NCBI GenBank assembly: GCA_964574775.1
Contig: CAZNOS010000001.1
Coordinates: 1 to 58,967, forward strand
Direction of reading: 5' to 3'
From: Candidatus Woesearchaeota archaeon
GTDB lineage: Archaea; Nanobdellota; Nanobdellia; Pacearchaeales; GW2011-AR1
DNA length: 58,967 nt
The translations under genes and the position numbers were made by a program. The notes under the pieces were generated by a model that was given only the letters and a program-made list of their open reading frames with translations, ran no database searches and was not told the origin of the DNA. Every line of letters begins with the position of its first letter. The first letter of the stretch is position 1. Positions 5,707 to 58,967 of the stretch are shown piece after piece.

Positions 5707-5754
5707 TAGAATACTAAAAAGAAATCTATTTATAAATCTTTCTTTGATTCACTA

Positions 5755-7731: not shown

Positions 7732-8171
7732 TCTTTCACCTCTATTTTTATTGTAACTCTTCCATTGTTGCCCAGATTCGGAGGAGAAAAAAGAATGTTA
7801 TAATTGGAAAAATAGCAATATGTATAACCGCCCGTCTTAGAACCCAAAGAAACAAAAATACAAGGCTCATCCTTAACTTTCGAAAAACTTTCACCCTTCG
7901 CCCTCACAACATCTCTCTTCTCTTTTAGCGCTATATTATATGCATCCGTAACATCTAACGTAATATCCGTACCTGGCCTCGCTCCGTCAATAATCAACGC
8001 AATTTTTTTTGCATAAATTTCCTCATTAATAGATGCCCCACCTATAGAATTTTTAGCAAAGACTAAAAGAATAAAGGCAAAAACTAAAAATAAAATCAAA
8101 TAAGTAATCTCCGGCCAAGCAATAGCATTTGCAGAACCCCTCTTGTTTTCTTTAAAATCCAAAATCACCAT
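7728..8171 (-). CDS. Prepilin-like protein, cluster member E
   Basis: Start set at the internal ATG (MVILDFKENKRGSANAIAWPEITYLILFLVFAFILLVF). The ORF-track start at 8213 is probably an over-extension. Confidence 0.65.
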   Translation of the reverse strand: MVILDFKENKRGSANAIAWPEITYLILFLVFAFILLVFAKNSIGGASINEEIYAKKIALIIDGARPGTDITLDVTDAYNIALKEKRDVVRAKGESFSKVKDEPCIFVSLGSKTGGYTYCYFSNYNILFSPPNLGNNGRVTIKIEVKE

Positions 8172-8217
8172 ACGAAACAAACCACTTTTAACATTATAAA
8201 TCTTGCCAAACAATCAA

Positions 8218-9270: not shown

Positions 9271-9303
9271 AATCAAAATACAAAAACCTTCTTTTTATAT
9301 TTA

Positions 9304-9417
9304 ACTAAGAAAGATTCGTCAGAAACTTAATTACGTAAACAACTGCCAATATTAAAATTCCAATTAGAATCGCTATTGAAATATCCTCAACCGTATTACT
9401 GCCCGTATCATCTGCCA
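9304..9417 (-). CDS. Small (37 aa) single-TM protein inside the prepilin-like operon (absent from the ORF track)
   Basis: Hand translation gives MADDTGSNTVEDISIAILIGILILAVVYVIKFLTNLS*. It fills the gap between members H and F on the same strand. Confidence 0.45.
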
Positions 9418-9463
9418 TAAAAAAATAACTTAAACCACATTAATAAATGTTATTAGAAATCAC

Positions 9464-10732: not shown

Positions 10733-10814
10733 ATTAATTAAAAAAAATCATTCTTAATAAACATTACCAATCAATCGCCATAATATTTAAATAAAAAAGA
10801 CGGCATAAAAAATA

Positions 10815-12083
10815 ATGTCATTGGAAAAAATCTTGAAGACTGGAAGAAATCTGCTTATGGCCACCTTTTTGTCTGCCTCACTGACGAGCTTATCCCCAGC
10901 ACAAAATCCACCAGAAGAAGCCATGATACCCATTCCCGTAGATCAGTCTCTTTCGTGGTTCCGTCCAATTAACGGAGTTTTAACTTGCAAAAATAAAAGC
11001 AACACAACTTCACCATCAGCACAATTTGCCTCTCAATATACCGTTACAAATACATTTTATCTAACTGGAAAAACGACAGAAGATGGTTGTTTAAACGTAG
11101 GTTTTTTTAGCGCAGACCCAAGAAAAAAACCAGAAAAAACACACTACAGAATAGATTATGCGAATTCCAAACTCTACATAATGTGTTCACCAAACCTATC
11201 AATTGATTCTAATACACAATATGCAGAAGAACTCACGCTAACCGATAAACTTGCATCCACCAAACTAGTTCCAAAAGAAGAAGCCAAGGGATTTTGGATT
11301 CGGGCAGAACAAAGGGTTTTAGAAACATTAGAAAATTACGATCCAAGCAGAAAATTTTTAGAAGTATACACATTAGGAACAGCAACCGATTATTGCTTTT
11401 CCGAATTAATAAAAAATCACGCCATTGCCATGAACACCACCGTAGGAGAAAGAATGAAAAATGAAATAGACGATAGAAATGCAATAGGCACGATTCAAAT
11501 TCCTTTTCATTCTAAAGAAAAAAATGTTTTATTTCGCAACGAATTTGGAAGAAAGTTTAGAATATTCTTAGGTGCTCAAAATCCAACCACACCAGTCCGA
11601 GTTTTATATCATATAGAAACAGAATTTGACGACGGAACATCTAGTGCAAGAGGAACGCTCGAAGCTTTCACGGAAGAATTTCCAGCATTCACAATACCGA
11701 AAGAAAATCCTCCATCAGAACAAAAACCGTCAACACAAAAATGGCCAACAGGAATTTGGATAAAAGAACCACGAACGGACAAAACAGTAACTCCGGAAAA
11801 ACTCGAATCGCAAGAACTATATCAAGCCGGTTATTGTATAGATAACGACGGGAATCTATATCAAATATATTCATCTAGAAGATTTCCCGCATTCACAGAA
11901 ACAAGACAAGATGGAACCATCGCCGTATATCATAAAGACGTATCTAACGGAGTAAAAATCACAGAAAGAAATAATAGTTCGCTAGAAATACTTAGGCCAC
12001 TAAACGTAGACACAATGGAACAAACAACTACTGACACATCTACAGGAACAACAATAAGAAGAAACATATTCAAAAGAAAATAA
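10815..12083 (+). CDS. Secreted hypothetical protein on the opposite strand, splitting the prepilin-like cluster
   Basis: Signal-like N-terminus LLMATFLSASLTSLSPAQNPPEE. Its composition differs from the neighbouring genes (more Pro/Arg/Thr). Confidence 0.65.
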   Translation: MSLEKILKTGRNLLMATFLSASLTSLSPAQNPPEEAMIPIPVDQSLSWFRPINGVLTCKNKSNTTSPSAQFASQYTVTNTFYLTGKTTEDGCLNVGFFSADPRKKPEKTHYRIDYANSKLYIMCSPNLSIDSNTQYAEELTLTDKLASTKLVPKEEAKGFWIRAEQRVLETLENYDPSRKFLEVYTLGTATDYCFSELIKNHAIAMNTTVGERMKNEIDDRNAIGTIQIPFHSKEKNVLFRNEFGRKFRIFLGAQNPTTPVRVLYHIETEFDDGTSSARGTLEAFTEEFPAFTIPKENPPSEQKPSTQKWPTGIWIKEPRTDKTVTPEKLESQELYQAGYCIDNDGNLYQIYSSRRFPAFTETRQDGTIAVYHKDVSNGVKITERNNSSLEILRPLNVDTMEQTTTDTSTGTTIRRNIFKRK

Positions 12084-12088
12084 TTAAA

Positions 12089-12853
12089 TTATTTCGTAGA
12101 AATTTTTAATGCACTTGCTAATTTTGCATAATTATCCACCAATAGGTTGGTTTGTATATTTGCCTGTAAATCATCATTTATATACAAAACTGGATTTTGA
12201 AATCTCTTTAATAAAATTAAATCTGGCGTATTATAGCTCCTAGAATTATCTGGGCCCTGACCACCAACCCAAGTAGTATCGCAAGGTAAAGAAACTTGTT
12301 GGTTTGCATCTAGCGTCGTTTTGGATAAGAAATATTTTCCAACATCATCTGGAGAATAAGCAAAATAAACAACGCCATTTAAAGAAATGGCTCCAACAAT
12401 TACATCCTTAGGGAACCAAAAAGAAGTCTCTTTTAGGTATAGCACAATATGATTTTTATATTTCTTTAAATATATCGCATTCTCATAACCATTTCCCCAA
12501 AAACTTGCATCCACCTTACACAGCCTTAAGCTCAATATAGCATTCTCAAAAATATACACTGACTCCGTATTTGCACCCTTAGTGGTATTAACTATTATAT
12601 AATTAAATACGGGTGGAGCGATTTGCCCACTATCACCAACCACATCCGCCAACTCATCACTTCCCTCTATAACTCCATAGGATTGATTTGCCTCCCCTTT
12701 CATATCGGGCAAAATATTTTGTAACATCGTTTTAAATTGAGTCGGAAAAATAATAAAATAAACAGCCATAGCAATAATCGCCACGCTAATTACTAGGGCC
12801 ACGACAGTGCCCGCCGTCATATCTCCTTTTTTATTTTGAACAATCTTTCTCAT
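12089..12853 (-). CDS. Prepilin-like protein, cluster member I
   Basis: Start set at the internal ATG 12853 (MRKIVQNKKGDMTAGTVVALVISVAIIAMAVYFIIF). The TAAAATG junction links it to the small upstream ORF 12855..13013. Confidence 0.7.
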   Translation of the reverse strand: MRKIVQNKKGDMTAGTVVALVISVAIIAMAVYFIIFPTQFKTMLQNILPDMKGEANQSYGVIEGSDELADVVGDSGQIAPPVFNYIIVNTTKGANTESVYIFENAILSLRLCKVDASFWGNGYENAIYLKKYKNHIVLYLKETSFWFPKDVIVGAISLNGVVYFAYSPDDVGKYFLSKTTLDANQQVSLPCDTTWVGGQGPDNSRSYNTPDLILLKRFQNPVLYINDDLQANIQTNLLVDNYAKLASALKISTK

Positions 12854-12854
12854 T

Positions 12855-13013
12855 TTACGAACCAAACCTAAACCAGTCAAAGAAACTATGCAACCACCCC
12901 GTTGCCTGTTCTTTAAAAAAAAGTAACATAACCACGCCAACCCCAACTAAAGCTATAATGGCCAAAATAAGTCCTTGTACAAAATCAAATTCCGAACCTC
13001 TCTTATTCACCAT
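12855..13013 (-). CDS. Small (52 aa) prepilin-like protein, cluster member J (absent from the ORF track)
   Basis: Hand translation gives MVNKRGSEFDFVQGLILAIIALVGVGVVMLLFFKEQATGWLHSFFDWFRFGS*. Same N-K-R-G-S plus helix motif as the other members. Its stop lies 1 nt before the ATG of member I. Confidence 0.55.
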   Translation of the reverse strand: MVNKRGSEFDFVQGLILAIIALVGVGVVMLLFFKEQATGWLHSFFDWFRFGS

Positions 13014-13083: not shown

Positions 13084-13605
13084 ATGGATAAAATTAAGGC
13101 AACATTCATATCCGAAAAAATATTCTCTAACTCGAAAGAGGCGTTCGGTATGTTTGAATCTCAAAGGTTTGGTGAAAGAACTGGCGAAAAAATTTTCTAC
13201 ACCCTCCAAGAAACACTTTTCTTAGTGGAAACAGGAAAAATGGAAATAATAGACTCTAAAGATAAAAAAATACCCGAAAGAGAAATCTTAAAAAAATTCG
13301 CCAAAATAGATAAAAAATTCAAAACAAAATACCTAGTCTTCAGAGATTTAAGAAAGAAAGGATTAATTGTAAAAACCGCACTCAAATTTGGAGCAGAATT
13401 CAGAGTTTATGAAAAAGGAAAATCTATCGGAGAAGATCACGCAAAATGGATTCTATTCCCAGTCTCACAAAACGAACAACTTACATGGCAAGATTTTTCT
13501 GCAAAAAACAGAATTGCGCACTCCACAAACAAAAAATTATTAATTGCAGTTGTAGATGAAGAAAATCAAGTCTCATATTACGAAGTAAATTGGTTGAAAA
13601 TATAA
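13084..13605 (+). CDS. endA: tRNA-splicing endonuclease
   Basis: YLVFRDLRKKGLIVKTALKFGAEFRVYEKG...HAKWILFPV...IAHSTNKKLLIAVVD is typical of the archaeal EndA catalytic domain. Confidence 0.85.
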   Translation: MDKIKATFISEKIFSNSKEAFGMFESQRFGERTGEKIFYTLQETLFLVETGKMEIIDSKDKKIPEREILKKFAKIDKKFKTKYLVFRDLRKKGLIVKTALKFGAEFRVYEKGKSIGEDHAKWILFPVSQNEQLTWQDFSAKNRIAHSTNKKLLIAVVDEENQVSYYEVNWLKI

Positions 13606-20866: not shown

Positions 20867-22744
20867 CTAATTAATAATATTTTCTATAAACGCACTTGGC
20901 ATAAGATTGCCACCCCAAACCCAATAAGAAATATCTTCTCTCTTGCCGTCTAACAACCTTCCATTTGGAGATTTAGAACTAATTAAATCCAATGGAAAAA
21001 AAGACCCGCCATCTTTAAATGGCATCGCGTAAATACCGTCTATATTTGTTTTTCTAAATGACAATCTATCGTTGTTCTCGTAGCCAATCATTTCTGGAGA
21101 AAATCCTAATTGACGAATAGTTGGTTTCCTTTCATTACTAATAGCAAATCCATCTTTTTTTATCGCATCATAATATTCTCTATCTACGAAAAGCACAAAA
21201 TCCGCTGGATGAACCCTATACCCACTCAAATTTGATCCATTGAAAGCCCCTATACCTCCCTCATCTACTTTAGTGGTTTCCTGTGCCGACTCATACTTAA
21301 CATCAGACGCTAACCAAAATTCCGGAATTCCATTTTGTAAATTTAGAACTTTAGATCTAACCGCACCAACCGCAGATTTTGACTTCGTTTTTAACGGAGA
21401 TATTTCTTTAAATGTCACGCTTCCATCGACAACACTCTCAATATATTGCGCAGGAATCTGAAAAACACCTTCTCTCGGCCTAATAGCTGACCAATTAGAA
21501 TCAATCACGACTCCATCCTGGACATAGAGAGCCCTTTTGCCACTCAAAAATTCTCTAAATATGAGCATGTTTTTTTTCATAATAACTTGCTCCAACTCTG
21601 GAGAATGACAAGTGCCCTCATCTAACGAAAGATAGTCTTTAGTCCCCTCCTTGCTCGAAGAATATCCTGCATTATAATAATAAGTCCAATTATCTCCCAG
21701 AGATGACGCCCTGGCATGATTTTTTAGATGGGGATATTTTTTTGCTCCATAATTTATAAATTCCGGACCAGCAAATTTCAACCTCCTACTAGATGGATGA
21801 ACGACAAAAACCTCGCCACTATTGCTATATTCCTCAGCTAACATATCCTTGCTTAATTGCATTTTGAGAAAAATTTCTGGAGAACGGTATTCCAGACCAC
21901 TAAGCAAAAATGAAGCATTAGCCAAAACACCAACAACTGGCTCCCTTATTGCAGAATTAGGATCTATCTCCAAAACAAAATGATAATTTCTGTCACCATT
22001 AGCAATATTTTTTTGTCTTCTAATCGCATCATCCAATTCTTGTCTGGCCCCTGCAGCCCTTTCTCGCAATTGTGATAGTTCTGCAATCGACTTCGAACCT
22101 GCTTGCTTAATCAGATACTCAGAATAGTCTATATTTCTTTGCAAATTAGAATTATCAGCCTTAATCAGCGGAAAAACTTCTGGCTTTATTTTAAAAACAC
22201 AATATGATTCATTCTGTCCACAATCGATATTCGGAAGGATGTCAGAAAATAATCTTTGTTTAAACGCGTCTACAGAATATACAGAATATGCTCCGTTAAT
22301 TCCGACTTTCCTCTTTTCATACCCCCTAGATGTTGATACATCTGCGGCACCAAAATTATATTCCTCCACCATTCCGACTCCAACTCTCAGATCTGAATGC
22401 AAAAAATCTATAGAAGTATTTTCAGAATTTAATGCAATCGGTTTATTCTGCTCGCCCACCTTCGGAATTAATAAAATCCTCACTCCCGCTGGTTCCTGTT
22501 CTAAAACAACCTCCAATGAATCTTTTAAAACCCTTTTACCATCTAAAGAAGCTAAGTCACAGGTTGTTTTAACGCATGCAAAATCTGTCCATTTATAATC
22601 AGGATAGCGAGCTGGCGCCTCAGGGGCAACGATATCGTTTTCTAAAACCTCTCTTCCAAATGCATCCCGTTCACCAAGAGCCACGGGACAAAAAGCTAAC
22701 AAAGCAGAACTCAAAATCCCAGCAAGACTCTTTCTAAATTTCAT
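20867..22744 (-). CDS. Secreted hypothetical protein (625 aa)
   Basis: Signal peptide MKFRKSLAGILSSALLAFCPVALG. No recognisable domain. Richer in Arg/Gly/Ala than the core genes. Confidence 0.7.
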   Translation of the reverse strand: MKFRKSLAGILSSALLAFCPVALGERDAFGREVLENDIVAPEAPARYPDYKWTDFACVKTTCDLASLDGKRVLKDSLEVVLEQEPAGVRILLIPKVGEQNKPIALNSENTSIDFLHSDLRVGVGMVEEYNFGAADVSTSRGYEKRKVGINGAYSVYSVDAFKQRLFSDILPNIDCGQNESYCVFKIKPEVFPLIKADNSNLQRNIDYSEYLIKQAGSKSIAELSQLRERAAGARQELDDAIRRQKNIANGDRNYHFVLEIDPNSAIREPVVGVLANASFLLSGLEYRSPEIFLKMQLSKDMLAEEYSNSGEVFVVHPSSRRLKFAGPEFINYGAKKYPHLKNHARASSLGDNWTYYYNAGYSSSKEGTKDYLSLDEGTCHSPELEQVIMKKNMLIFREFLSGKRALYVQDGVVIDSNWSAIRPREGVFQIPAQYIESVVDGSVTFKEISPLKTKSKSAVGAVRSKVLNLQNGIPEFWLASDVKYESAQETTKVDEGGIGAFNGSNLSGYRVHPADFVLFVDREYYDAIKKDGFAISNERKPTIRQLGFSPEMIGYENNDRLSFRKTNIDGIYAMPFKDGGSFFPLDLISSKSPNGRLLDGKREDISYWVWGGNLMPSAFIENIIN

Positions 22745-31056: not shown

Positions 31057-31125
31057 TTTTAAATTTTAAAAATAATAATCCTCAATCTCATTCTAAAAAT
31101 ATCTTAATTACTTTAAAAAAGCAAA

Positions 31126-31208
31126 TGGGGAGAAGAGGATTTGAACCCCTGAAGGCGTAAGCCACTAGAGCCTAAATCTAGCCCGTTAGACCACTCCGGC
31201 ATCTCCCC
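31126..31208 (-). tRNA. tRNA-Leu (TAG), class II with long variable arm
   Basis: Manual fold of the minus strand: GGGGAGA TG CCG GAGTGGTCTAA CGG G CTAGA TTTAGGC TCTAG TGGCTTACGCCTTC AGGGG TTCAAAT CCTCT TCTCCCC A. Confidence 0.88.
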
Positions 31209-31363
31209 ACTGTTTGCTATGTCTCAATATTCCGGACATTGAAAATCTATCAATGCTTTTCCGACATCTCTACACAATAAATTCCAATAAATCATACTTA
31301 TAAAACTAACGGAGTGGATAAAAGCTTAACTAGATAAAACACTTAGAGAAAAATTAAAAATAA

Positions 31364-34300
31364 TTATTTATCTGAGACAAAAGTATATCCTTTTTCAGAT
31401 AACTTGGTAGAAGCAGAACCTACTGGAATAGTTTGAGTTGCAGTTTGTCCACTTTGTTTAATAGTTATTACGACGCCACCGCTAGCTGTAGTAGAACTAA
31501 CCACGGAATATTTAACACCATCCTTCTCTAAAATATTTCCAGAAACCAAATCTCCCAGGGTTTTATCAGTAGTAGTCGTTGCAGTTGTCACCGGTGTTTC
31601 AGTACTGGTCGACGGCATATTCACCGCCGAAAGCAAAGTTCCTTTACCATTCTTTAATCTTACAATCGTTTCATATAATTTATATCTCAAATAAACTCCC
31701 TTAGCCTGATAAACATTTGAAAACCCTCTATCCTGCAATGTTGTAATATTACTCAATATAGGAAGATGTGCACCAGCTTTAACACCATCATTTGTTAATG
31801 CATGAATATCATTATTAATTTTAACCGCTAATTCCTGACTTGCGTCCTCTGTCAATGTGCCACTAGCACCATTTAAAATTTCCAAAGAATTTTCAGCCTG
31901 ATTCATATCCTCCGAAATATTCCATATTTGAGACGTTGCAGCCGACACAGACTCTGTGTCCAACCAGCAAACCATATTTGCATCTCCACAAGTCCCAACA
32001 CTTTTCCATCTGGAAGATTTCGATGTGCCATCTCCTGGATTTACAGTCGAACAAATTCTAACAATTCCTTGTAAATCAATTCTCGGATCAACAACGTTTT
32101 CTACCGCAGCCTGTGGATTAATAGAAGTAAATCCAATAACAGAAGAACTTCCCTGTTGACATTCTTTCTCGGTAGTAATTTGAGTTTGACTCACCTGAGA
32201 TTGAACATATGAATTAGTCAAAGCATTAACTGCAAAATCAGTTGTAACCTTTCCAAAGCCACACTCTTCCTGTCCATTTATCGACACACAAAGCTCCTTA
32301 TATCCTTCTGGCGCAGTAAAATCTTTCGAAACCTGCTTCTGTTGTCCTTTAGTAACGTAACCCGTTTCTACATTAATATACGGAATTCCAGTATAATAAC
32401 TCGAATCTGGTGGATTCTTTAAGTAAATAGAATAACTAACTCCTGTATCATTTCCAGCGTAAATATGTGCGAATACTTTATATTGTGACGTTGGAGGAAC
32501 TGTTGCATCTGTATGTGGTATTTCCTGAAACTCTGCATAAAATTGATATGGGGACTCAGGCGCAAGCAAGGAATCTAATGCCTCTGCCGACGTAGGGAAT
32601 GAAGTTCCAACAAACGAATTACAAACTTCCGTTCCAAATTGTTGCGTATTGCCAAACTTAAATTGAGTAAATGAATTTGCGCCATAAGTATTTTTGAAAT
32701 AATCTAAACTTGCCTCCATATTATTCCAAGATTTTTGGAAAGTCATATATTCTCCACCACCAGCCTTTTGTGTTCCGGTCACGAGCGAAAATATATTTGG
32801 CAAGAAATTACTAATCGCCGGCTGAATTTGATTCCAAAATAAATTACATTTGTAAACCGCTGTCATATAATCACACATACCAATATACTCACCATTATCT
32901 GCATTTGCCTGTAAACAGTCTCTCTGGGCTTTTAATATCGACAAATACGCATCTAATCCCGCATGTACCCCTGTTAAACAAACTGGGATATAAACATCTC
33001 CGCCAAATAATTTGAAATTCGGTAAACACAAAACTAAACTTCCAATAACTCCCGATTGAATAACATTTGAAACGGGATATTTACCGCCCAAATCACATCT
33101 CGAAGTTGGGCACATAACTGGATCACAAACATTAAACATTAACGCGCAATCTTCTGGCGACATGAAATCCTGACACTCTTCAATCGGACCACCCTCTCCC
33201 GTCGGAGTTCCTCTTTCTGCTTCAATATCTGCTCTGCCAGAAATCTTAATTATAATTTTCCCCTTCGAAGAATATTGTCTTCCCGCCTGTCTCAAAGCCT
33301 CTTGCGCATCTAAAATTAATCTCGTTCTTTCGTTAGATGACATTTTACAGCCCGCAACACTCACCAGATTTGTCGTTTCACCTACTGAATTCACATTAAT
33401 AGTTGTACATGCATCATCTGGAGTTTGCCTACCATCCTGTCCAACATTGCATACAGAGAATGTATTAACACTTCCAGAATCAGAATATCCTTTCGATTCA
33501 GACGACAGCAATCCACCCTGCGATGCAGAAACTTTCACATACCAACCCAAATCAGCATCGAAAGGAGTTGCTGCAGCAAGTCCCTTTGCACTTCCACTAT
33601 CGTAATAATTAACAGTTGGATTCAAATTTTTATTTTTACAATTTCCAGACGAAACAAAACGCGCGTTGGATAAAGTTTTTTTAATATCGCCATCAGCTAA
33701 TTCTATCCAGGAATTCGTATTTCTTTCATAAACAGAACTAACGCTTCTTTGTCCAGAATTTTCTTCACTTAAAATCAAAAGATAATTTATTGTATTATAT
33801 CTAGTTAAATAAACAGCAGTTCCAGTCGCAACATTAGCAACAGAACCAACGCCAGAATCACCGACCTTATCTCCGCCCCAAACCAACTCTTTTGTTTCCT
33901 TGTTCTCCCATAGATTAACATTGGCACCGCCAGAAGTTGTACCAGACTGAGATTGAGCATTTGCCGCATTCACTATTGGTATCAGAGCCGCATCTCTATC
34001 AACCTTAATTTTATTTATTAATTTAGACGAAGCGCCACTAGATTTAATATTTTCATACAATAAATAAGCCCTTACTGACTCCCAACTATTCAACGAAGAA
34101 ATCGGCAACGTCGCAGTTGTCGTCGACATATTTATATCAGTTATAGTTCCACCACCCAAACTCGCAACAAATTTCGTAATATTTTTTTCCGTTCCAATCT
34201 TGTCATTCACCGCCTTTACTGCATTTGTATAGGCATCTACATCTTTGCTGATATTTGCACCCATTCTGTTATAGCAAACATCCCTAGTCTCCTTAACGCC

Positions 34301-36646
34301 AAAAACAGTAGTCTCCGCATTTGAATCGCAATAACTTCTCCATACGTCCATAACTTCTTGTCTAGCAAGAGATTCTCCAGAATAACCCGCTAATAAATTC
34401 TTTACATTCAATGCGAGATTTGTAATATAGCAAACTCCCTTTAATCCCTTTATCACTTCAGCTAAATTAGCCAACTTCTTTTCCATTTTAGCAATAGTTT
34501 TATTTAACTCTGCAGCTTTTTCTGAAGACTTATTTGGATTTAATTTTATAGTCCTTTGTTCAATTCCAATCTTATAACTAAAATTAGATGCAGTAGTTGT
34601 CTTTTGAGTATTTGTAATTAATTCCACTTTAACGACAGTTGGAACTTCAATATCATCAACCTCTAATTTATAGGGCTTAGTATTTATCGTCTCTTCCTTA
34701 ATTTCGTCTAGTCTGATAGTAGAAGGTCTCTGTCTAACCCAACCATTAATGTTATTAGTATTCGTATAAACAAAAATACTAACCTCCACACGACTAGAAT
34801 ATATTTTATCAACAACGAGCTTTTCCGAATCCTTCTGTAGTTCTATTTCTTGCCCCTCGCCAAAAACACCCCTATATTTTTCATCAACATAAAATCCTGC
34901 TTTTTTAGACTCTCTATCTGCCGCCCTAAACTTTCTCAATGTTATGGAATATGTTTTTCCATTTATCTCAAAATTTTTCATTGTATTTGAAGTGTCATAA
35001 TTTTTTTCCGAAGACAATTGTGCCTGTATCAATGAAGCGTAATCCGAATCTGGAAAATTATCTACAAAACTTTGCATCAATAATATTTTTACGGCGCTCT
35101 CGGTAACAAGATTAATTTGTTCGAGAGATGCAAGCTCGCTAAATCTATTCAAATCTCCACGAACCTCTTTATAATCAGCCAATAACTCATCAACTGCCTC
35201 GTCGGCATTGTCTAAATCACTAACAACCGCTGCATTAACTTCATTGGATTCGCTAGCACTATCTTTTCCAACCAAACTATTAAGTTTAATTTCTCCAAGA
35301 TTAGAATTAATCGGGGAATCTTTCTCATTTAAAATAATCATACTTTCACCAAGCTTAAATCCAGAAAGAGAAATATCTTTAATTTTTACAATACTATTGT
35401 CACCCATCCCAATAGCAGTTTCATCAATATTAGAAATCTTTTTCGCCAACTCAGAATATACAGTCGACTTCATTTCTTTTTCAGAACCAAGTAAAACAAC
35501 CAAACTTTCTTTACTCCCCTCTTTTCCAACATAACCAGAATAAGCCAACTTCCAAGTCAATGATTTTCCAGGAGTAATATTTCCAACGAAAACCCTCTCG
35601 CTAATATTATATAATTTAGAAGCAAAGCCCACAGAAATATTCGCAGGATATCCCCCAACGACACTTAATTCAATTTTCCCCGCACCCTGACAACTCAAGG
35701 TTACTTTTCCAGAGCTATCTGTGTATAAATTCACATCAGAAACAGTGCATCTACCGTCAAGAATTTTCGAATCCTTTCTAACCCAAATTTCACTACCATC
35801 AACGTTTAACAATGCACTATCTTCAGTAGAAGTCATTTGTGAAAGCTTTAATTTAAAACTTGCCTTACAATAATATCCTGGAAAATAAACAGTTGGACTA
35901 GTCTCGCCCTCTTTTAATATATGCTCGTCAATTAACTCACCATTCTGAGAATAAACACCAATCCTAGCTTGCGTAGAGTCAACATCTAACAAACGCAAAT
36001 AACCCTTACCATTCCAAAAGGTTGCCATTCCCATCTGAGAATCAGCGCCAGAAAAATCACTTCCCTCTAAATAAAGCACCGCATCTCCGACGCCATAAGC
36101 AGATTCTGCATCAAAACTAATTCTAGCAGTCAAATTACCGCTAATATATTTAGACATATTATTTTCATTTGGATTTCTTTTTAAGATAATTACAACATAA
36201 CCAACATTATTGTATAACGGATCTCCCAATAAAGTATTATAACTTCTAAGTCCCGCTCTTGCCGGATAAAAACTAACTCCAGAAACCTCGCTAGGCATTT
36301 TTCCACTAAAACTAACTGTTTTAATCGCAGAAATTTTAATCAATGGATTTACTCTTACAGAAGACAATTTACAAAAAACTGGAACATTTTTTTCAGCAAG
36401 CAAGTCACTTCTAACTGCCATAGGTTCACATCCTCCTGGTGGAATCATTAAAACTATATCTGTAGACTCGGCGCAATTACTTTCATCAAATGCGGTTTCT
36501 AATCCAGACCAATATGTGGAAGCAGAAGAGCCATAAATACTATTTACAGAAGGATTTGAATACTGAACACCATTTACGGAATTATAAAATTGCGCAGACG
36601 CAAAACCAATAAAAAATAAAATAAAAATGAATAAAACTTTTTTCAT
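31364..36646 (-). CDS. Giant (1760 aa) secreted protein of unknown function
   Basis: Signal peptide MKKVLFIFILFFIGFASAQ. Cys-dense block (ECQDFMSPEDCALMFNVCDPVMCPTSRCDLGG...) and Thr-rich linker STSTETPVTTATTTTDK. No C-terminal anchor. ATGA overlap with the upstream gene. Confidence 0.8.
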   Translation of the reverse strand: MKKVLFIFILFFIGFASAQFYNSVNGVQYSNPSVNSIYGSSASTYWSGLETAFDESNCAESTDIVLMIPPGGCEPMAVRSDLLAEKNVPVFCKLSSVRVNPLIKISAIKTVSFSGKMPSEVSGVSFYPARAGLRSYNTLLGDPLYNNVGYVVIILKRNPNENNMSKYISGNLTARISFDAESAYGVGDAVLYLEGSDFSGADSQMGMATFWNGKGYLRLLDVDSTQARIGVYSQNGELIDEHILKEGETSPTVYFPGYYCKASFKLKLSQMTSTEDSALLNVDGSEIWVRKDSKILDGRCTVSDVNLYTDSSGKVTLSCQGAGKIELSVVGGYPANISVGFASKLYNISERVFVGNITPGKSLTWKLAYSGYVGKEGSKESLVVLLGSEKEMKSTVYSELAKKISNIDETAIGMGDNSIVKIKDISLSGFKLGESMIILNEKDSPINSNLGEIKLNSLVGKDSASESNEVNAAVVSDLDNADEAVDELLADYKEVRGDLNRFSELASLEQINLVTESAVKILLMQSFVDNFPDSDYASLIQAQLSSEKNYDTSNTMKNFEINGKTYSITLRKFRAADRESKKAGFYVDEKYRGVFGEGQEIELQKDSEKLVVDKIYSSRVEVSIFVYTNTNNINGWVRQRPSTIRLDEIKEETINTKPYKLEVDDIEVPTVVKVELITNTQKTTTASNFSYKIGIEQRTIKLNPNKSSEKAAELNKTIAKMEKKLANLAEVIKGLKGVCYITNLALNVKNLLAGYSGESLARQEVMDVWRSYCDSNAETTVFGVKETRDVCYNRMGANISKDVDAYTNAVKAVNDKIGTEKNITKFVASLGGGTITDINMSTTTATLPISSLNSWESVRAYLLYENIKSSGASSKLINKIKVDRDAALIPIVNAANAQSQSGTTSGGANVNLWENKETKELVWGGDKVGDSGVGSVANVATGTAVYLTRYNTINYLLILSEENSGQRSVSSVYERNTNSWIELADGDIKKTLSNARFVSSGNCKNKNLNPTVNYYDSGSAKGLAAATPFDADLGWYVKVSASQGGLLSSESKGYSDSGSVNTFSVCNVGQDGRQTPDDACTTINVNSVGETTNLVSVAGCKMSSNERTRLILDAQEALRQAGRQYSSKGKIIIKISGRADIEAERGTPTGEGGPIEECQDFMSPEDCALMFNVCDPVMCPTSRCDLGGKYPVSNVIQSGVIGSLVLCLPNFKLFGGDVYIPVCLTGVHAGLDAYLSILKAQRDCLQANADNGEYIGMCDYMTAVYKCNLFWNQIQPAISNFLPNIFSLVTGTQKAGGGEYMTFQKSWNNMEASLDYFKNTYGANSFTQFKFGNTQQFGTEVCNSFVGTSFPTSAEALDSLLAPESPYQFYAEFQEIPHTDATVPPTSQYKVFAHIYAGNDTGVSYSIYLKNPPDSSYYTGIPYINVETGYVTKGQQKQVSKDFTAPEGYKELCVSINGQEECGFGKVTTDFAVNALTNSYVQSQVSQTQITTEKECQQGSSSVIGFTSINPQAAVENVVDPRIDLQGIVRICSTVNPGDGTSKSSRWKSVGTCGDANMVCWLDTESVSAATSQIWNISEDMNQAENSLEILNGASGTLTEDASQELAVKINNDIHALTNDGVKAGAHLPILSNITTLQDRGFSNVYQAKGVYLRYKLYETIVRLKNGKGTLLSAVNMPSTSTETPVTTATTTTDKTLGDLVSGNILEKDGVKYSVVSSTTASGGVVITIKQSGQTATQTIPVGSASTKLSEKGYTFVSDK

Positions 36647-38472
36647 TGTTCTAACCCCACGGATAAAACCGAATCTTCAAACTTAATATAGTTTTCATTT
36701 ATATCTTCAATTTTTTGCGGCAAAGAAAAGATAGGAACATTAATTGCTATCGTTCCACCTTGACTTAGAGAATAATCGTCGAAAAATTCAACCGACTTTC
36801 CACCACCATTTAAAACTTGATCTATAGTCTGAGAAGGCATTTCAGTTGTAAAACATTTTGTTTCTACTTCGCCAGTAAGTGCACCAAACCCAGTCGCTGG
36901 AACTTCAAAACATCTGCTTTCAGTTCTTGCTGGGAAAGTTAAACTAGAATTTCTAAAAACCTGTACACTGACATTATAGACGCCCTCTACCAACTCTATC
37001 TTTCTCTCTGCAGGATACATAACACTTCTTGAAAAATCATCAGAAGTAAACTGAACGATTGCATTTCCAGAAACACTTCCTAAATTAAGACCCAGAGTAT
37101 AAACTTTTTTAACCAAAACATCCGCAGAGCTTTCTTGGCTTGAAGAAACGACATATCTACCAGAAGAATAATTTTCCGCTCTCGCCTCTATATATCCATT
37201 GATACAAACCGGAATTTTAGTTTGCAATGGACCAGATTTTGTTTCGCCCAAATAACATCTTTCTCCAAGACAACTATAACTCAGAGTTGCAGCAACTGGA
37301 TTTCCATTCAAATCAGAAACACCGATTTTCATATCATGATTTCTATTCTTACAAATTACCTCTTCCTCGCCAACGAATTCACCAATATTAGTAGAATTCC
37401 TAACTTGGTTTCTTTCAATCATAACAATAACTGGAAATTGAAAAAACTCCTCATCGTCATGAACCTGTATCAAAACTGGAAACATAAGATCATAAATAAG
37501 TTGATATTCAACGAAACAAAAACCAAGCGCATTCATTCCGGGCTGCAAACCAACTGGTTCGACAACATCGTCGCCATATATCTCAATTTTTGTAGGCCAA
37601 TCAGAAAAGTAAACAAAATCCACGCTCTCATCTGTCTTCATATCATCAACTACAAAATAATCATCCGAATTCAAATAGTAATCTCCGCTAATTTTTACAA
37701 ATTGAATATTTTCCACTAAAGCATCAGAAATGTTTTGTCTAATATTAGCAAAATTGAAAACCTTTGGAACACAACCCTCTTCAAATCCAACCGTCGGTGC
37801 ATTCAAGGTTAAAGTATCAAGCGCATAATTATCTAAAAATTTAACTCTTGATTGTGTGTCATATATTCCCTGGGCCAAATCATAAAATTTACCAATCTTA
37901 GAAGCAACAGAAATTTTGTGTTCGCTCACAACAGCGCTAGTATTGTCTTCAGAAAAGAAATAAACATTATTGTCTAAAACCACCTCTACGGAATTATCCT
38001 TAATCTCGACCTCTACATTACCAGAATCTACGTCGATAAAAATGCCGTCATCATTAAAATTTTTAAAATTACAATCTCTCATTGACTCAGAAATAAATCT
38101 TTCTAATTCAGAAACCATCTGTGATTTTGTCGGGATCTGTTCCTTTACTACATTATTTCCAGAAACATAAAACCAATAAGGAACACCAGCACCGCCGAAA
38201 TCTAACTGAGAAGAAGATGGCGCATAAATACTACCGGATTCAAATGGTAGCTCTTCCGTGTATATATAACCACCCTGCTCTCCCAATAATTTGATTCCAG
38301 ATTTTACTCTTTCAGTGATACAGGATTTATATGCATCTTCTGCGGATTGAAAATTTTTAGAAACTGTTCCAGTAAAACCACCCCTAAAAACATAATATAA
38401 AACTATTCCAGCAACCAAAATTATACCTAACACAATAAAGATAGTTACCTGTCCTTTTTTACTAATCACCAT
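36643..38472 (-). CDS. Prepilin-like (class III signal-like) 609-aa protein, translationally coupled to the giant protein
   Basis: N-terminus MVISKKGQVTIFIVLGIILVAGIVLYYVF. Its stop overlaps the start of 31364..36646 (36643-36646). Confidence 0.75.
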   Translation of the reverse strand: MVISKKGQVTIFIVLGIILVAGIVLYYVFRGGFTGTVSKNFQSAEDAYKSCITERVKSGIKLLGEQGGYIYTEELPFESGSIYAPSSSQLDFGGAGVPYWFYVSGNNVVKEQIPTKSQMVSELERFISESMRDCNFKNFNDDGIFIDVDSGNVEVEIKDNSVEVVLDNNVYFFSEDNTSAVVSEHKISVASKIGKFYDLAQGIYDTQSRVKFLDNYALDTLTLNAPTVGFEEGCVPKVFNFANIRQNISDALVENIQFVKISGDYYLNSDDYFVVDDMKTDESVDFVYFSDWPTKIEIYGDDVVEPVGLQPGMNALGFCFVEYQLIYDLMFPVLIQVHDDEEFFQFPVIVMIERNQVRNSTNIGEFVGEEEVICKNRNHDMKIGVSDLNGNPVAATLSYSCLGERCYLGETKSGPLQTKIPVCINGYIEARAENYSSGRYVVSSSQESSADVLVKKVYTLGLNLGSVSGNAIVQFTSDDFSRSVMYPAERKIELVEGVYNVSVQVFRNSSLTFPARTESRCFEVPATGFGALTGEVETKCFTTEMPSQTIDQVLNGGGKSVEFFDDYSLSQGGTIAINVPIFSLPQKIEDINENYIKFEDSVLSVGLEQ

Positions 38473-38521
38473 TAGTAATTTAAGAAAAACTTCCTATATA
38501 AATATATTTGTAGCGATATAA

Positions 38522-38547
38522 AATGATCCCACGAGGAATTAAACCTC
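38522..38547 (-). other. Ghost copy of the tRNA-Val T-arm/3' acceptor end (25/26 identical)
   Basis: Plus strand aatgatcccacgaggaattAaacctc versus tRNA aatgatcccacgaggaattGaacctc (38589-38614). No matching 5' half lies adjacent. Confidence 0.7.
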
Positions 38548-38590
38548 TCGCCGTTAAGCGACGCAGAAACAGATAATGCGAGGTTCCGAA

Positions 38591-38661
38591 TGATCCCACG
38601 AGGAATTGAACCTCGGCCTGCTCCACGTCAAAGAGCCGTACTACCGTTAGACAATGGGATC
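38591..38661 (-). tRNA. tRNA-Val (GAC)
   Basis: Manual fold of the minus strand: GATCCCA TT GTCT AACGGTA GTAC G GCTCT TTGACGT GGAGC AGGC CGAGG TTCAATT CCTCG TGGGATC A. The D-stem has one C-T mismatch. Confidence 0.75.
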
Positions 38662-38725
38662 TTATATTTCTCAGCTAAAAGCTGAATTTAAATCTAACCA
38701 TTGACTATGCCGAAGCATTTTTAGG

Positions 38726-38736
38726 CAATGGGATCT
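38726..38736 (-). other. Ghost copy of the tRNA-Val 5' end (11/11)
   Basis: Plus strand caatgggatct is identical to 38652-38662. It lies 64 nt upstream of the intact tRNA on the coding strand and is followed by an ATGC-TTCG-GCAT hairpin. Confidence 0.55.
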
Positions 38737-38767: not shown

Positions 38768-39034
38768 CTACCTCTTTCCGCCCTTCACCTGCCCCCAATG
38801 CTCACGTAGATAACTAAATTTCAAAGATTTTTTGTCCATCTTTGCCAAAATAAGCAGATCATTAAAAAGATCTTCCGGTAGCGTTCTATTCTCGTTATAG
38901 TAGCTCTTGAGAGTCTCATAATTAATCTTTAGACCAAACTGTATCAGCGCCCTTAAAGAAGGCGAATTGGAATTAGAAATAACTTGATCTAAAAACTTTC
39001 TCTGTTGTCCGATGCGAAATTTAATCCTAACCAT
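38768..39034 (-). CDS. Small hypothetical protein, possible HTH
   Basis: 88-aa ORF MVRIKFRIGQQRKFLDQVISNSNSPSLRALIQFGLKINYETLKSYY... No family recognised. Confidence 0.5.
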   Translation of the reverse strand: MVRIKFRIGQQRKFLDQVISNSNSPSLRALIQFGLKINYETLKSYYNENRTLPEDLFNDLLILAKMDKKSLKFSYLREHWGQVKGGKR

Positions 39035-41218: not shown

Positions 41219-41311
41219 AGCCTGCAGAGGGAGTCAAACCCCCGACCCCAAGTTTTTTTGAATTTTCTTGTTTATACAAAACTCGTGCTCTATCAACTGA
41301 GCTATGCAGGC
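41219..41311 (-). tRNA. tRNA-Thr (TGT) with a 20-nt intron after position 37
   Basis: Manual fold of the minus strand: GCCTGCA TA GCTC AGTTGATA GAGC A CGAGT TTTGTA [taaacaagaaaattcaaaaa] A ACTTG GGGTC GGGGG TTTGACT CCCTC TGCAGGC T. The intron is 41255-41274. Confidence 0.8.
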
Positions 41312-52404: not shown

Positions 52405-53510
52405 TTACCCAAAATTATTCCTCATCATATCTCTATCCATCGAGTAACTAACAGCAGTAGTTGCAGAAATTTTTCCCGCTCTATATAACGTCATTAAAGA
52501 ACTATCCATCTGAACCATTCCCTCAGTTGAACCAGACTGAATAGTAGACGGAATTTGAGACAATTTCCCAGTTCTGATTAAATTTTTTATTCCTGAAGTA
52601 TTTCTCATAATTTCCATCGCCAACACACGTCCGCCCTTAACGCCGGGAACCAACTGCTGACACACGATATATTCTAAATTATCAGCCAACGCTCCCCTAA
52701 CGTAATTTCCATCATTACCAGAAACAAAATCCAAACAACGAGTAATAGTCCCAGCCGAATCTTTAGTGTGCAAAGTTGAAAAAACTAAATGTCCAGTATC
52801 CGCCGCATTTACAACACCTTGCAACGTCTCGGAATCTCTCGTCTCTCCAACAACAATTACGTTCGGATCCTGTCTCATCGCCTGAGAAACTCCCTCTGAA
52901 AAACCTCTTATGTCTCTATATAATTCTCTCTATATAATTCTCTCTGTATAACGCTTGCCTTAATTCCATTGTGAACATATTCAATCGGATCTTCTAATGT
53001 AATAATTTTCCTAGCATAATTTCTATTTATATGCTGTATCAACGAAGCTAACGTAGTTGATTTTCCAGAACCAGTTACTCCAGTCACAAGAACCAAACCT
53101 CTTTGTAAAGAAACGATTTGCTTCCATATCTCATTTGGAAATCCTATTTCACTAATTTCCCTAATTCTATTTGGAATTACTCTTGCCGTAAAAAACGGTC
53201 CGTTCTTCGCGCTAGCGACATTAACTCTAAAATTTCTACCATTGTGCTCATAAGCAAAATCAACCGCAAAAGCCTGTTTATATCTGTCTTTTTGTTCGTC
53301 CGTCAGAATAGCGTTTACCATCCCCTCAACACGTTCCCTACTCAAAACATCACTATCCTCGGCTGACCCAAGTTGCCCATCAATTCTAAAAAGAGGATGT
53401 GCACCAGATTGAACATGTAAATCAGTCGCAAATCCGCCCTCAGTAGTCGCACTCAACAATTCCCTAAACTGGTCCAGATAATCATTTTGCTCTGCCATCC
53501 TAAACACCAT
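52405..53510 (-). pseudogene. pilT: PilT/PilU-family type IV pilus retraction ATPase, frameshifted by a 14-bp tandem duplication
   Basis: N-part carries Walker A LVTGVTGSGKSTT and ITLEDPIEY. C-part carries RQDPNVIVVGETRD, TGHLVFSTLHT and GIKNLIRTGK (AIRNLIRE-type). Removing one 14-bp copy gives a single 364-codon ORF (363 aa plus stop). Confidence 0.85.
52917..52944. repeat. Perfect 14-bp tandem duplication (tatataattctctc x2) at the pilT frameshift
   Basis: 52917-52930 is identical to 52931-52944, flanked by ctc microhomology. Confidence 0.95.
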
Positions 53511-56861: not shown

Positions 56862-58967
56862 TTAATAAAAACCATAATGTCTTTTATTCCTATGATTTTT
56901 TTCAATTCTCCTTACCCAAAAATACTCTTCTATCCTATTTCTGTTTTTTTTCCAAACAAAAAACAAAATAATTAACAAAACTAAGACAATAGCTACAATT
57001 GCTCTCCAATAAGAATGTTTTATTTCTTTTTCAAAAAAGTTTGCAACAATATTTTTTTCTTCTACAATCTGCTTACTATCTGTTTTTATTTCTTGTATAA
57101 ACACCATTGCCTGTCTTGATGTAGAATTCATTCCATCATATCTTGCTCTAATATCATTTACAGAATCATTATTCAAATCAAACTCATATAAAACTCCCTT
57201 CTGTAAATAAGCAATAATAGGATTTGATTGTATCAAAACCTTCGCGTGAGTTGCATTAAATGTATTCAATGTCAAAGTATGATTTGTAAAATTAACAACA
57301 AATTTAATCTTATCGTTATATCTCAAATTAAAACTATTTCCAGATAAAGGCAAATTAACGTCGGAGAAATAAGTTTGGGGAGAATAACTTGAAGAAGTCG
57401 TAGTTGTTGTTTGATTCTCTTCAATAGTTGTTGCTGCTTCAACAGTCAAACTTCTTGTTTTAGATGTCTTGATTAACCCTGTATTATCTTTACATTGGAT
57501 ATTCCAAGTGTAATTGCCATTGGATAAATTTAAAGATAAAATATTATTCTGTTCTTTAACAATAGATGTTGAAGAATTCTTATATTGTCTTGTATAAAGC
57601 GCCAATACTTCGCTAGCAGAAAGAGAACGATTCCAGATTGCAAGTTCATCCAAATAACCCTCGATGTTTTCACTTGATGCAAAAGGTATATCTCCACCTA
57701 TTGCTCTAAACGCATTATTGATTACTAGGGGCTCTGCACTACTCAGGGTAAAGCTCCCGTCACTAACACCATTTACATAGAATGATACAATATTATTTTG
57801 TCTAACTGCCACAACATTATACCATTTATTTAGCGAAAGTATACCTCCTCCAGATCCGCTCCCTATAGAATTAGTATAAAAGTCAACATGCCTACTATTT
57901 ATAGAAAAAAGGAATTCATCGCCACCACTACCAAAAGCAAGAATAGAGTCATAGCCATCATTGTTATTAAGTTTAACCCAAGCAGAAAGAGTAAAATTAC
58001 CTATTGAGGTAAAAACAGCATTATCTGGCAAGATAATATTCTGTGTACCATTTAAATAATAGGATGCATTTCCAAATTTATATGATGTATAATTAAATTC
58101 TCCGCCATTTGCAGTACCATCATTTCCATTTCCAGAAGAGTCTACTAAATTATCATTCAAATGCCACAAGGCTAGTAAATCACTTTCATTAGATTCAATT
58201 TCAGATGTTCTTGAGCTATCTACCGTTAAGTTACAATATTCAATTTCTTGCTCATCTAAAATCATTGTCGTATTAAATACAAAAGAAACAGGACTTGAAC
58301 TTGCAGAATTATTTGAAGGTGAAACAATATTTACTCTTAAGGATGGTACTCCATTAGATTGCCATTTTAAAATAGGATAATCTCTACCATCATAAGCATC
58401 GCTCCAAACATTAGTGAAATCCCAAACATCTCCATTTTCACCAGCAGTATAAACTCCATGACTAGTATCATAAAATGCAACAGCAGAACTTTCATTGTAA
58501 CTAATGAACTCTACAGGGCTATCAACACCCAAATCGTATCCAATAGCAACCGAAGCAGAATCTGTAGTAACCCATCCACAATTAATATAATCATTAGGAC
58601 TACTTCCTATAAACCCTCCAGCAGTCTCTATATTTTCAGAAGTCAAACTTCCGGCAGCATATGAAGAATAAATAGAATCGCCTGCATTTATTCCAGCGAA
58701 ACCACCTATGGATGCTCCTTCTGAATTAACATCTCCTACCGAATAACAATTATATATATCGCCTGGATTTTGTCCAACAAATCCGCCAACATAGTTGGAG
58801 ATATATCTATCAGAAACATCACCTCTTGTATAAGAATTATTAATAAATGAACCCAATCCATTAAATCCTATAAATCCGCCCACACTACTTCCTGCTGACT
58901 CTGTCCTAACATTTCCCAGGGCGTAAGAACTTTCTACAAATCCATAATTTACTCCTATAAATCCACC
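56862..58967 (-). CDS. Surface adhesin-like protein with GLUG-type GGF[IVA]G repeats, LamG/ConA-like domain and C-terminal TM anchor (5' end outside the window)
   Basis: The frame stays open to the window edge (GGFIGVNYGFVESSYALGNVRTESAGSSVGGFIG...). LamG-like segment FTLSAWVKLNNNDGYDSILAFGSGGDEFLF...WYNVVAVRQNNIVSFYVNGV. Anchor AIVAIVLVLLIILFFVW. Confidence 0.75.
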   Translation of the reverse strand, partial: GGFIGVNYGFVESSYALGNVRTESAGSSVGGFIGFNGLGSFINNSYTRGDVSDRYISNYVGGFVGQNPGDIYNCYSVGDVNSEGASIGGFAGINAGDSIYSSYAAGSLTSENIETAGGFIGSSPNDYINCGWVTTDSASVAIGYDLGVDSPVEFISYNESSAVAFYDTSHGVYTAGENGDVWDFTNVWSDAYDGRDYPILKWQSNGVPSLRVNIVSPSNNSASSSPVSFVFNTTMILDEQEIEYCNLTVDSSRTSEIESNESDLLALWHLNDNLVDSSGNGNDGTANGGEFNYTSYKFGNASYYLNGTQNIILPDNAVFTSIGNFTLSAWVKLNNNDGYDSILAFGSGGDEFLFSINSRHVDFYTNSIGSGSGGGILSLNKWYNVVAVRQNNIVSFYVNGVSDGSFTLSSAEPLVINNAFRAIGGDIPFASSENIEGYLDELAIWNRSLSASEVLALYTRQYKNSSTSIVKEQNNILSLNLSNGNYTWNIQCKDNTGLIKTSKTRSLTVEAATTIEENQTTTTTSSSYSPQTYFSDVNLPLSGNSFNLRYNDKIKFVVNFTNHTLTLNTFNATHAKVLIQSNPIIAYLQKGVLYEFDLNNDSVNDIRARYDGMNSTSRQAMVFIQEIKTDSKQIVEEKNIVANFFEKEIKHSYWRAIVAIVLVLLIILFFVWKKNRNRIEEYFWVRRIEKNHRNKRHYGFY

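Follow-up and report, generated by a model that had tools for sequence, protein, structure and literature searches.

Of all uncultured archaea, Woesearchaeota and Pacearchaeota are some of the most widespread. What might two adjoining genes do for such an organism when together they take up 7,109 of the 58,967 bases of one of its contigs? The genes lie at positions 31,364 to 38,472 of contig CAZNOS010000001.1 (Candidatus Woesearchaeota archaeon, assembly GCA_964574775.1), an archaeal contig of ~34% GC whose whole analysed stretch of 58,967 bases we call the window; their share of it is 12%, the figure also given in a first-pass annotation made from the sequence letters. That annotation had read the pair as a candidate filament-tip adhesin module, in which a prepilin-like protein of 609 residues (here the partner) is coupled to a secreted protein of 1760 residues (the giant). 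Comparison of gene order among relatives identifies the pair as a vertically inherited core module of the Woese-/Pacearchaeota (DPANN) clade. As to its function, we favour a two-part anchored cell-surface complex for host or cell contact, and judge the chances of this reading to be evenly balanced.

Two overlapping genes on the reverse strand

The pair and all of its features described below are encoded on the reverse strand (-). The partner gene (36643..38472) specifies 609 amino acids with 10 invariant cysteines, and the giant gene (31364..36646) specifies a secreted, anchorless protein of 1760 amino acids with 30 cysteines. Both open reading frames (ORFs) have the coordinates and lengths given in the first-pass annotation, and the ATGA stop/start overlap that it had placed at 36643..36646 can be read directly in the sequence (context ...gaacaATGAaaaaag). 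Such an overlap indicates translational coupling of partner and giant. Given the base composition, the chance of an open frame is ~1e-59 for 1760 codons and ~1e-20 for 609 codons. A separate Logan assembly holds a 1760-residue protein that is identical to the giant at 1759 of 1760 residues, so the giant ORF is intact elsewhere.

A TATA-box-like element, TTTATATA, can be read at 38495..38502, 30 nt 5' of the partner ATG, which has no other obvious leader upstream. Judged by the archaeal TATA consensus, TTTATATA probably serves as promoter for a bicistronic transcript with no leader or almost none. A scan for bacterial-type promoters and terminators is uninformative for archaeal DNA.

The pair is fixed in a conserved housekeeping block

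The first-pass annotation had proposed strong selection on a coupled module and a survey of related genomes for the pair; the survey decided the matter in favour of synteny and supports a genuine module under strong selection. Full-length homologs of the giant number at least 141 (1.7–3 kaa, E down to 0, residues 1–1560 covered) and homologs of the partner more than 417, nearly all of ~600–640 aa; those of both proteins come from metagenome-assembled genomes (MAGs) that bear the label Pacearchaeota, Woesearchaeota or Nanoarchaeota. When the core of the giant (residues 1001–1570) was used as a query in an exhaustive HMMER search, 1,030 clusters at 50% identity were recovered, of which 893 reached E≤1e-30. 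In the best 150 matches the core always sits at ~residue 1000–1650 of proteins of 1.7–3 kaa, and shorter matches look like fragments.

With one genome per GTDB species, 574 stretches encode a relative of the giant. We examined 80 of these, 68 of which had enough upstream DNA to judge the neighbouring gene. The partner was directly upstream of the giant on the same strand in 68 of 68 loci, and in 60 of the 68 the stop and start overlapped or were at most 1 nt apart (ATGA in 37, a 1-nt overlap in 13). The titles of almost all 80 loci read Woese-/Pacearchaeota, Nanoarchaeota or archaeon. The three exceptions comprise one Aenigmarchaeum-labelled contig and two bacterial-labelled contigs, namely DAOTCN010000002.1 (L066) in a Paceibacterota MAG, which carries giant, partner, L44e and S3Ae, and JAHITY010000143.1 (L085) in an Omnitrophota MAG, which carries the giant. 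The latter two are probably mis-binned archaeal contigs.

In relatives the block reads S8e, TFB, tRNA-Leu, giant, partner, tRNA-Val, an ORF of ~90 aa, L44e, S3Ae and NDK, with FtsY and SRP54 further along. Four relatives whose giants are 37–49% identical to the one studied here have the same gene arrangement. The upstream boundary of the pair is tRNA-Val(GAC) (38591..38661) and the downstream boundary tRNA-Leu(TAG) (31125..31209), and both brackets are conserved in 10 of 10 relatives; the tRNA-Leu anticodon is TAG in nine of them and AAG in L067. Because the pair occupies a fixed housekeeping block, we take it to be vertically inherited and not mobile. The flanking tRNAs had hinted at a mobile island, an explanation we rejected given the same tRNA brackets and housekeeping neighbours in all ten relatives. 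A viral or proviral origin was likewise rejected, as none of the viral contigs searched encodes a relative of the giant.

The block at 28957–51784 of the window is shared with loci L001–L005, an unusually stable gene order for giants that are only 37–49% identical. In the relative genome that holds P0035 (a contig of 0.88–0.96 Mb), a second and larger ORF lies just past S8e (L001 20165–26951, L002 19173–26951); it is longer than 4,400–4,950 aa and runs off the locus. The window has no counterpart of this ORF.

The giant is a secreted scaffold without an anchor

The giant begins with a Sec-type signal peptide (residues 1–18, 36593..36646; MKKVLFIFILFFIGFASA|QF) recognised from sequence and hydrophobicity, with predicted cleavage at ASA|QF. 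An N-terminal hydrophobic signal is present in 107 of 120 giant homologs, a C-terminal transmembrane (TM) segment in 0 of 120, and the hydrophobicity profile of the giant contains no strongly hydrophobic segment past the signal peptide. Homolog coverage divides the protein into conserved stretches (residues 1–320, 480–840 and 1000–1560) and variable ones (320–480, 840–1000 and everything past ~1560).

From the N terminus, a conserved domain (residues ~25–330, 35657..36574) bears the motif IPPGGC.P..VRSDLLAE.NVPVFC and is followed by a first variable region (residues 331–480, 35207..35656), where homolog coverage drops. The structure model places an ApaG/Fn3-like β-sandwich at residues 566–680 and long helices at 704–900, one of them of 51 residues (together 33947..34951). 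The conserved Cys-rich core (residues ~1130–1565, 31952..33259) is the signature of this giant family and is found only in it. It includes a Cys-dense helical block (residues 1157–1271, 32834..33178) with the motif ECQDFMSP.DC..FNVCDPV.CP.SRCDLGG and three moderately hydrophobic helices. Many of the cysteines, together with the motif FNVCDPV.CP.SRCDLGG, are invariant. Beyond the core, the model shows a TPR/Sel1-like helical-repeat region (residues 1566–1665, 31652..31951), and some homologs are annotated as TPR proteins. A Thr/Ser/Pro-rich linker (residues 1678–1696, 31559..31615), which has a predicted local distance difference test (pLDDT) score <50, leads to a small C-terminal β domain of 64 aa (residues 1697–1760, 31367..31558), at the position where relatives carry peptidoglycan hydrolases. 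Signal peptide, missing anchor, Cys block, Thr-rich linker and small C-terminal domain are thus all present as the first-pass annotation had described them.

It had also reported no recognisable domain in the giant, and indeed the protein has no match at E≤1 and no catalytic domain in Pfam or NCBIfam. Searches against PDB sequence profiles and PHROGs returned nothing. A homolog search with the C-terminal 201 aa also returned nothing, the query itself included, probably owing to a word-index limit.

Relatives carry interchangeable peptidoglycan hydrolases

Several relatives of the giant have peptidoglycan-directed domains, always C-terminal to the scaffold. Such a domain is recognisable in ~15 of the 120 closest giant homologs, and the heads are of several types: SLT; Amidase_3 with Polysacc_deac_2 and DUF1615; Amidase_2 with Peptidase_M15_4; and phage tail lysozyme. 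DUF2272, a matrixin and a trypsin-like domain are also found. SLT (PF01464) is present in 12 of the 120 giant homologs listed; of the 19 longest family members, 6 carry it and 7 carry SLT or phage tail lysozyme. Hydrolase-bearing members are scattered over the clusters of core sequences, with C-terminal extensions of 111–1335 aa. The window's own clade of 12 sequences has uniformly short extensions (177–199 aa) and no enzyme. Here the extension is ~190 aa and also enzyme-free, which leaves a scaffold of ~1,560 aa. No peptidoglycan hydrolase catalytic domain was recognised in either protein of the pair by Pfam and NCBIfam or, for the giant, by fold search.

These features appear to make the window's giant a hydrolase-less ortholog in the published fam00969-type family, matched here by published description and not by sequences. 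The two have in common their lineage, their size range (up to ~3,000 aa) and the prediction of an extracellular location. The window's giant is homologous to the family scaffold along its full length (residues 1–1560), and its relatives are restricted to Woesearchaeota/Pacearchaeota by locus title and predicted to be extracellular by the signal peptide in 107 of 120. In contrast to the fam00969-type proteins, neither the window's giant nor its clade carries the SLT domain or another hydrolase. SLT-bearing giants, which are annotated as SLT-type large proteins, are 33–37% identical to it. The giant thus apparently adds a new enzyme-less member to a family to which papers on DPANN archaea have already drawn attention, and with which the AR20 protein of Castelle 2015 is reportedly named.

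Previously, attachment to bacterial cell walls was proposed for the 'large extracellular murein-transglycosylase proteins' of Woese-/Pacearchaeota (Castelle et al., PMC8204110), and predation on bacteria was inferred from 'large lytic murein transglycosylases' (Vigneron et al. 2022, PMC9723730); further related literature is found in PMC11537232. The SLT domain on some giants has been used to argue for bacterial hosts. In the passages of these papers that were searched, the enzyme domain is what is treated, and there is no mention of an obligatory partner, a prepilin-type head, a conserved scaffold or a fixed locus. As far as those passages go, three findings are new: the coupled partner with its prepilin-type head, the novel structures of the two proteins, and the polymorphism of the C-termini. 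Within this family the enzyme is an optional head on a scaffold that is far larger and universally conserved, and the scaffold is always accompanied by a translationally coupled partner bearing a prepilin-type head.

A conserved N-terminal scaffold with variable C-terminal enzymes is the hallmark of polymorphic toxins, and the giant family resembles CdiA, Rhs and phage tape-measure or tail-associated lysins in joining a scaffold to interchangeable C-terminal domains; one giant homolog carries the phage tail lysozyme domain seen in tail-tip lysins. The giant might on these grounds be a released, polymorphic-toxin-like bacteriolytic exoprotein used for competition or nutrient scavenging, with the partner as an export or folding helper. 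The missing anchor would fit, and archaea are reported to make bacteria-killing peptidoglycan hydrolases, prominently Nanoarchaeota (PMC12352652). We nevertheless consider this explanation distinctly improbable. The window's clade has no enzyme head, yet the full scaffold and the partner are strongly conserved, and a carrier of 1,560 aa would be an expensive way for a minimal genome to put out a diffusible enzyme. The strict 1:1 coupling with a membrane-attached protein points instead to a complex. Furthermore, neither Pfam nor the fold searches revealed homology to known toxin scaffolds (FHA, RHS/YD, LXG and others), no immunity gene is apparent, and the family is chromosomal, single-copy and vertically inherited.

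The partner has a prepilin-type head and a large ectodomain

The partner opens with a class III (prepilin-type) n-region, MVISKKG (38452..38472), with predicted cleavage at G7|Q8. It continues into a hydrophobic helix (residues 8–32, QVTIFIVLGIILVAGIVLYYVF..., 38377..38451) with a Kyte-Doolittle peak of 2.88, which AlphaFold models as a helix at 5–32. This N-terminal helix would serve as a membrane anchor or as a filament-core segment. In a 71-sequence alignment the consensus of the head is K-x-G-Q-V-T-I-F-I-I…, with Q8 and F12 invariant. The motif Q-[ILVMA]-T-x-F is present in 113 of 120 partner homologs. Within these 113, position -1 is Gly in 92 and Ala in 20 (112 together), Lys or Arg stands at -2 in 99 and at -3 in 103, and the median n-region is 8 aa.

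By its sequence pattern, [KR][KR][GA]|Q-x-T-x-F is a class III (prepilin-type) signal, at which the peptidase would cut after the Gly or Ala. The short basic n-region, the Gly or Ala at -1 and the hydrophobic stretch (MVISKKG|QVTIFIVLGIILVAGIVLYYVF) are those of class III signals. The invariant Q8 is the +1 Gln of EppA-type substrates, in which this residue is required (PMC4390842, PMC3875500). The pilin-like proteins of Methanococcus maripaludis have signals of 5–13 aa ending in Gly and a conserved +1 Gln (PMC3875500). The partner shares with these EppA-type Epd pilins a short basic n-region ending in Gly, the invariant +1 Gln and a hydrophobic helix of ~22 aa after the head (PMC3875500). System 1 of the methanogen type IV filaments (TFF) has been reported in DPANN too (bioRxiv 10.64898/2026.04.22.720090). 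Other ORFs with the partner-type GQ-x-T-x-F head were found in loci L060 and L066, so several proteins of these organisms bear this class of head.

Behind the head lies a highly conserved α/β ectodomain (residues 39–360, 37393..38358) without a structural match, followed by C-terminal β-sandwich domains (residues 379–609, 36646..37338) identified by AlphaFold and Foldseek. In the AlphaFold model (mean pLDDT 86.5), the TM-like helix 5–32 is separated by a low-confidence break at 31–38 from a second helix (39–65); the conserved α/β region then extends to ~residue 360 and gives way to the β-sandwiches at 379–609. A Foldseek search of the PDB matched only sandwiches of ~80 aa of the carboxypeptidase-regulatory/transthyretin-like type (2nsm, 1qmu and 9hfj, probability ~1.0 over 75–82 columns), and neither a type IV pilin nor an enzyme was among the matches. 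A PDB sequence-profile search with the partner returned nothing, and Pfam, NCBIfam and PHROGs returned nothing meaningful. Its 10 invariant cysteines fit an extracellular, disulfide-bonded ectodomain.

The description of the partner as prepilin-like thus stands for its conserved class III head; for the globular part, the Foldseek search of the model showed no pilin fold. The first-pass annotation had further equated this head with those of a gene island. The island (5035–12946, -) consists of eight ORFs of 161–422 aa with heads of the type NK[KR]G[D/S/A] and a hydrophobic helix; many are Cys-rich, none has a Pfam match, and the island has no ATPase or platform gene. Partner and island heads are of the same class, but the GQVTIF motif is absent from the island, and KKGQVTIF occurs once in the window.

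A strongly conserved pilin-type head is what would be expected of a protein that has to fit both a peptidase and a filament core, and the window holds eight pilin-like ORFs and a T2SSE-family ATPase gene. The partner could accordingly be a minor pilin at the tip of a type IV-like pilus, with the giant as tip adhesin. Bacterial modular pilins with large functional modules exist (PMC8179133), and the partner resembles one of them, Streptococcus sanguinis PilB, in the large module behind its head (PMC8179133). Several observations make this placement quite unlikely. The GQ-x-T-x-F head is unlike the NK[KR]G heads of the island and in the window is confined to the partner. The pair never adjoins TFF genes in the loci examined, and around it in the window lie tRNA genes, TFB and ribosomal protein genes but no gene for a TFF ATPase, platform protein or peptidase. 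No pilin fold was recognised in the modelled ectodomain, and at 609 aa the partner exceeds the 62–299 aa of archaeal pilins (PMC3875500). Class III signals are also found on non-filament proteins, such as the sugar-binding proteins of the Sulfolobus bindosome (cited in PMC3875500). The proposal of a filament tip hence found no support in the pilin-related features of the pair, its locus or the island.

The ATPase gene itself, of the PilT/T2SSE family (52405–53510, -), lies 14 kb from the pair and is split into two frames (52908–53510 and 52405–52878) by a 14-nt tandem duplication, GAGAGAATTATATA x2, near 52930, which is a further point against a pilus. Deleting one copy of GAGAGAATTATATA in silico restored an intact ATPase of 363 aa. 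The split may mark a pseudogene with a frameshift, a variant within the population or a switch that works by slippage.

The modelled folds and the surface-layer alternative

The AlphaFold model of the giant covers residues 561–1760 only (pLDDT 72). This modelled two-thirds of the protein is 37% α-helix and comprises, in order, a β-sandwich, long helices, a β-rich region, the helical Cys-rich core (~1157–1360) and another β-sandwich, ending in the helical repeats (1566–1665), the linker and the small β domain. Foldseek searches of the PDB and BFVD with residues 561–1760 returned nothing at E≤1e-3, only ApaG/Fn3-like sandwiches. Matches of the model to diphtheria toxin and Sel1 proteins were weak and of low probability, and were dismissed. 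As modelled, then, the folds of both partner and giant are novel. The structure and Foldseek check that the first-pass annotation had proposed for the giant consequently yielded generic β-sandwiches over residues 561–1760, and no S-layer structure in the PDB was matched.

This last comparison bears on the main rival to our reading, a two-component surface-layer (S-layer) or envelope coat, in which the giant would form the outer canopy and the partner a membrane-anchored stalk, by analogy with SlaA and SlaB of Sulfolobales. The gene logic is the same in both systems, a large anchorless secreted subunit being co-transcribed with a smaller membrane-anchored one; the likeness is one of analogy, as PDB searches showed no sequence or fold similarity. 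A coat would also suit a single-copy core pair that is lineage-wide and sits in a housekeeping neighbourhood, a giant rich in Ser, Thr and Asn with 14 N-glycosylation sequons, and a partner that ends in β-sandwich domains.

The build of the giant, however, speaks against a coat. Known archaeal S-layer proteins consist almost wholly of Ig-like β domains. In contrast, the giant has the helix content described above, with long helices and a helical Cys-rich core, and its 30 mostly invariant cysteines are, as a matter of general knowledge, atypical of S-layer proteins. Its core is 45–55% identical across orders, far above usual S-layer conservation, and the variable peptidoglycan hydrolases at the C terminus of family members would be unexpected on a lattice subunit. 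The anchors differ as well: in SlaA/SlaB the anchor is a C-terminal TM segment, whereas that of the partner would be its N-terminal class III head. On balance we regard the S-layer explanation as doubtful.

A proposed two-part complex for cell contact

We return to the anchored surface complex that we favour. One transcript would yield both proteins in fixed proportion. The partner would be exported by means of its EppA-type class III signal peptide, cut after Gly7, and held by its N-terminal hydrophobic helix, either in the membrane or as part of a short assembly resembling a type IV filament, with its disulfide-bonded ectodomain and β-sandwich stalk pointing outward. The giant would be exported through Sec and, having no anchor of its own, would be kept at the surface by the partner, its disulfide-rich scaffold of ~1,560 aa serving as a presentation platform. 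Contact would be with the envelope of a second cell, probably a bacterium that is host or prey, and in hydrolase-bearing relatives the complex would also cut that envelope; the hydrolase-less copy in the window would act in contact or recognition only.

Since the giant is secreted and anchorless, tethering by the partner is the natural reading. This part of the earlier proposal therefore stands, in contrast to the filament tip. The varied peptidoglycan hydrolases that relatives hang on the C terminus make another cell's envelope the most likely point of contact for the complex. The absence of a hydrolase from the window's copy in turn suggests that its role is restricted to contact or recognition. 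The earlier view of the giant as an adhesin is borne out to the extent that a cell-contact role fits the hydrolase heads of the family, but no adhesin fold was recognised. The many invariant cysteines of both proteins are extracellular-type chemistry.

A number of observations weigh against this reading. At +5, where Glu would be expected, the partner has an invariant Phe (F12), and none of its matches at E≤1 in Pfam or NCBIfam was to a pilin N-terminal model or a family of class III signals; the partner differs from pilins in both respects, as in its lack of linkage to TFF genes. Sulfolobus pilins are also without the +5 Glu (PMC3875500). Binding of partner to giant is something that we infer, and a profile-profile comparison of the two detected no shared domain. 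Among the ORFs scanned in the 59-kb window there is no prepilin peptidase or TFF platform, with neither an A24-type peptidase nor a GxGD motif found, and the only T2SSE ATPase is frameshifted. As the whole 12-sequence clade lacks a hydrolase, the bacterial target is extrapolated from relatives. The scaffold is also much more conserved than typical host-specific adhesins. Finally, we know of no cultured member of this lineage and of no host for it.

A bolder form of the proposal, which we hold to be unlikely, would make the pair a lineage-defining organelle for attacking hosts. In it, the prepilin-type subunit would link a type-IV-filament-like assembly system to the disulfide-locked 1,560-aa scaffold of novel fold, which would dock onto bacteria and breach their envelope by means of swappable wall-cutting heads and moderately hydrophobic, membrane-engaging helices of the Cys-rich core. 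If true, archaeon-on-bacterium episymbiosis or predation would for the first time have a molecular machine assigned to it, one that in function would be an archaeal counterpart of the phage tail tip or the type VI secretion system spike.

Solved structures offer no likeness of either protein, and viral models none of the giant; the C-terminal heads are polymorphic. The pair consequently offers a concrete two-protein target for finding hosts and the mechanism of contact, and the head types a route to infer host range. Its interest would rise considerably if it is indeed the host-contact machine of these archaea.

Other features of the window

Genes of the window include those for TFB, the ribosomal proteins S8e, L44e and S3Ae, FtsY, SRP54 and a tRNA-splicing endonuclease. 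Both ends of the tRNA-Val(GAC) gene next to the pair recur outside it (-): 26 nt of its 3' end are repeated at 38522–38547 and 16 nt of its 5' end at 38721–38736. These outer halves pair with each other in the minimum free energy fold (z = -3.6), and neither ARAGORN nor Rfam called a second tRNA at 38522–38736. The orientation of tRNA-Val relative to the pair flips between relatives. The end copies could be what an inversion or integration has left behind, or parts of a tRNA that is disrupted or split. Just past this tRNA, on the upstream side of the partner, lies an ORF of 88 aa (38768–39034, -), which is conserved in about half of the related loci (tblastn E≤1e-5) and had no match in Pfam or PHROG; it could encode a small regulator linked to the pair.

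Four further genes have products that, by sequence, are predicted to lie at the surface or to take part in interactions: a surface protein of Ig-like type that has both a signal peptide and a C-terminal TM segment (3090–4289, -), a secreted protein of 625 aa without a family (20867–22744, -), a 673-aa Laminin_G_3 and GLUG protein with a C-terminal TM segment (56862–58883, -), and a Fic-domain protein (1253–2488, +). The tRNA-Tyr gene (41219–41311, -) is 93 nt long and, given this length, probably contains an intron; the tRNA-splicing endonuclease gene lies in the same window (13084–13605, +).

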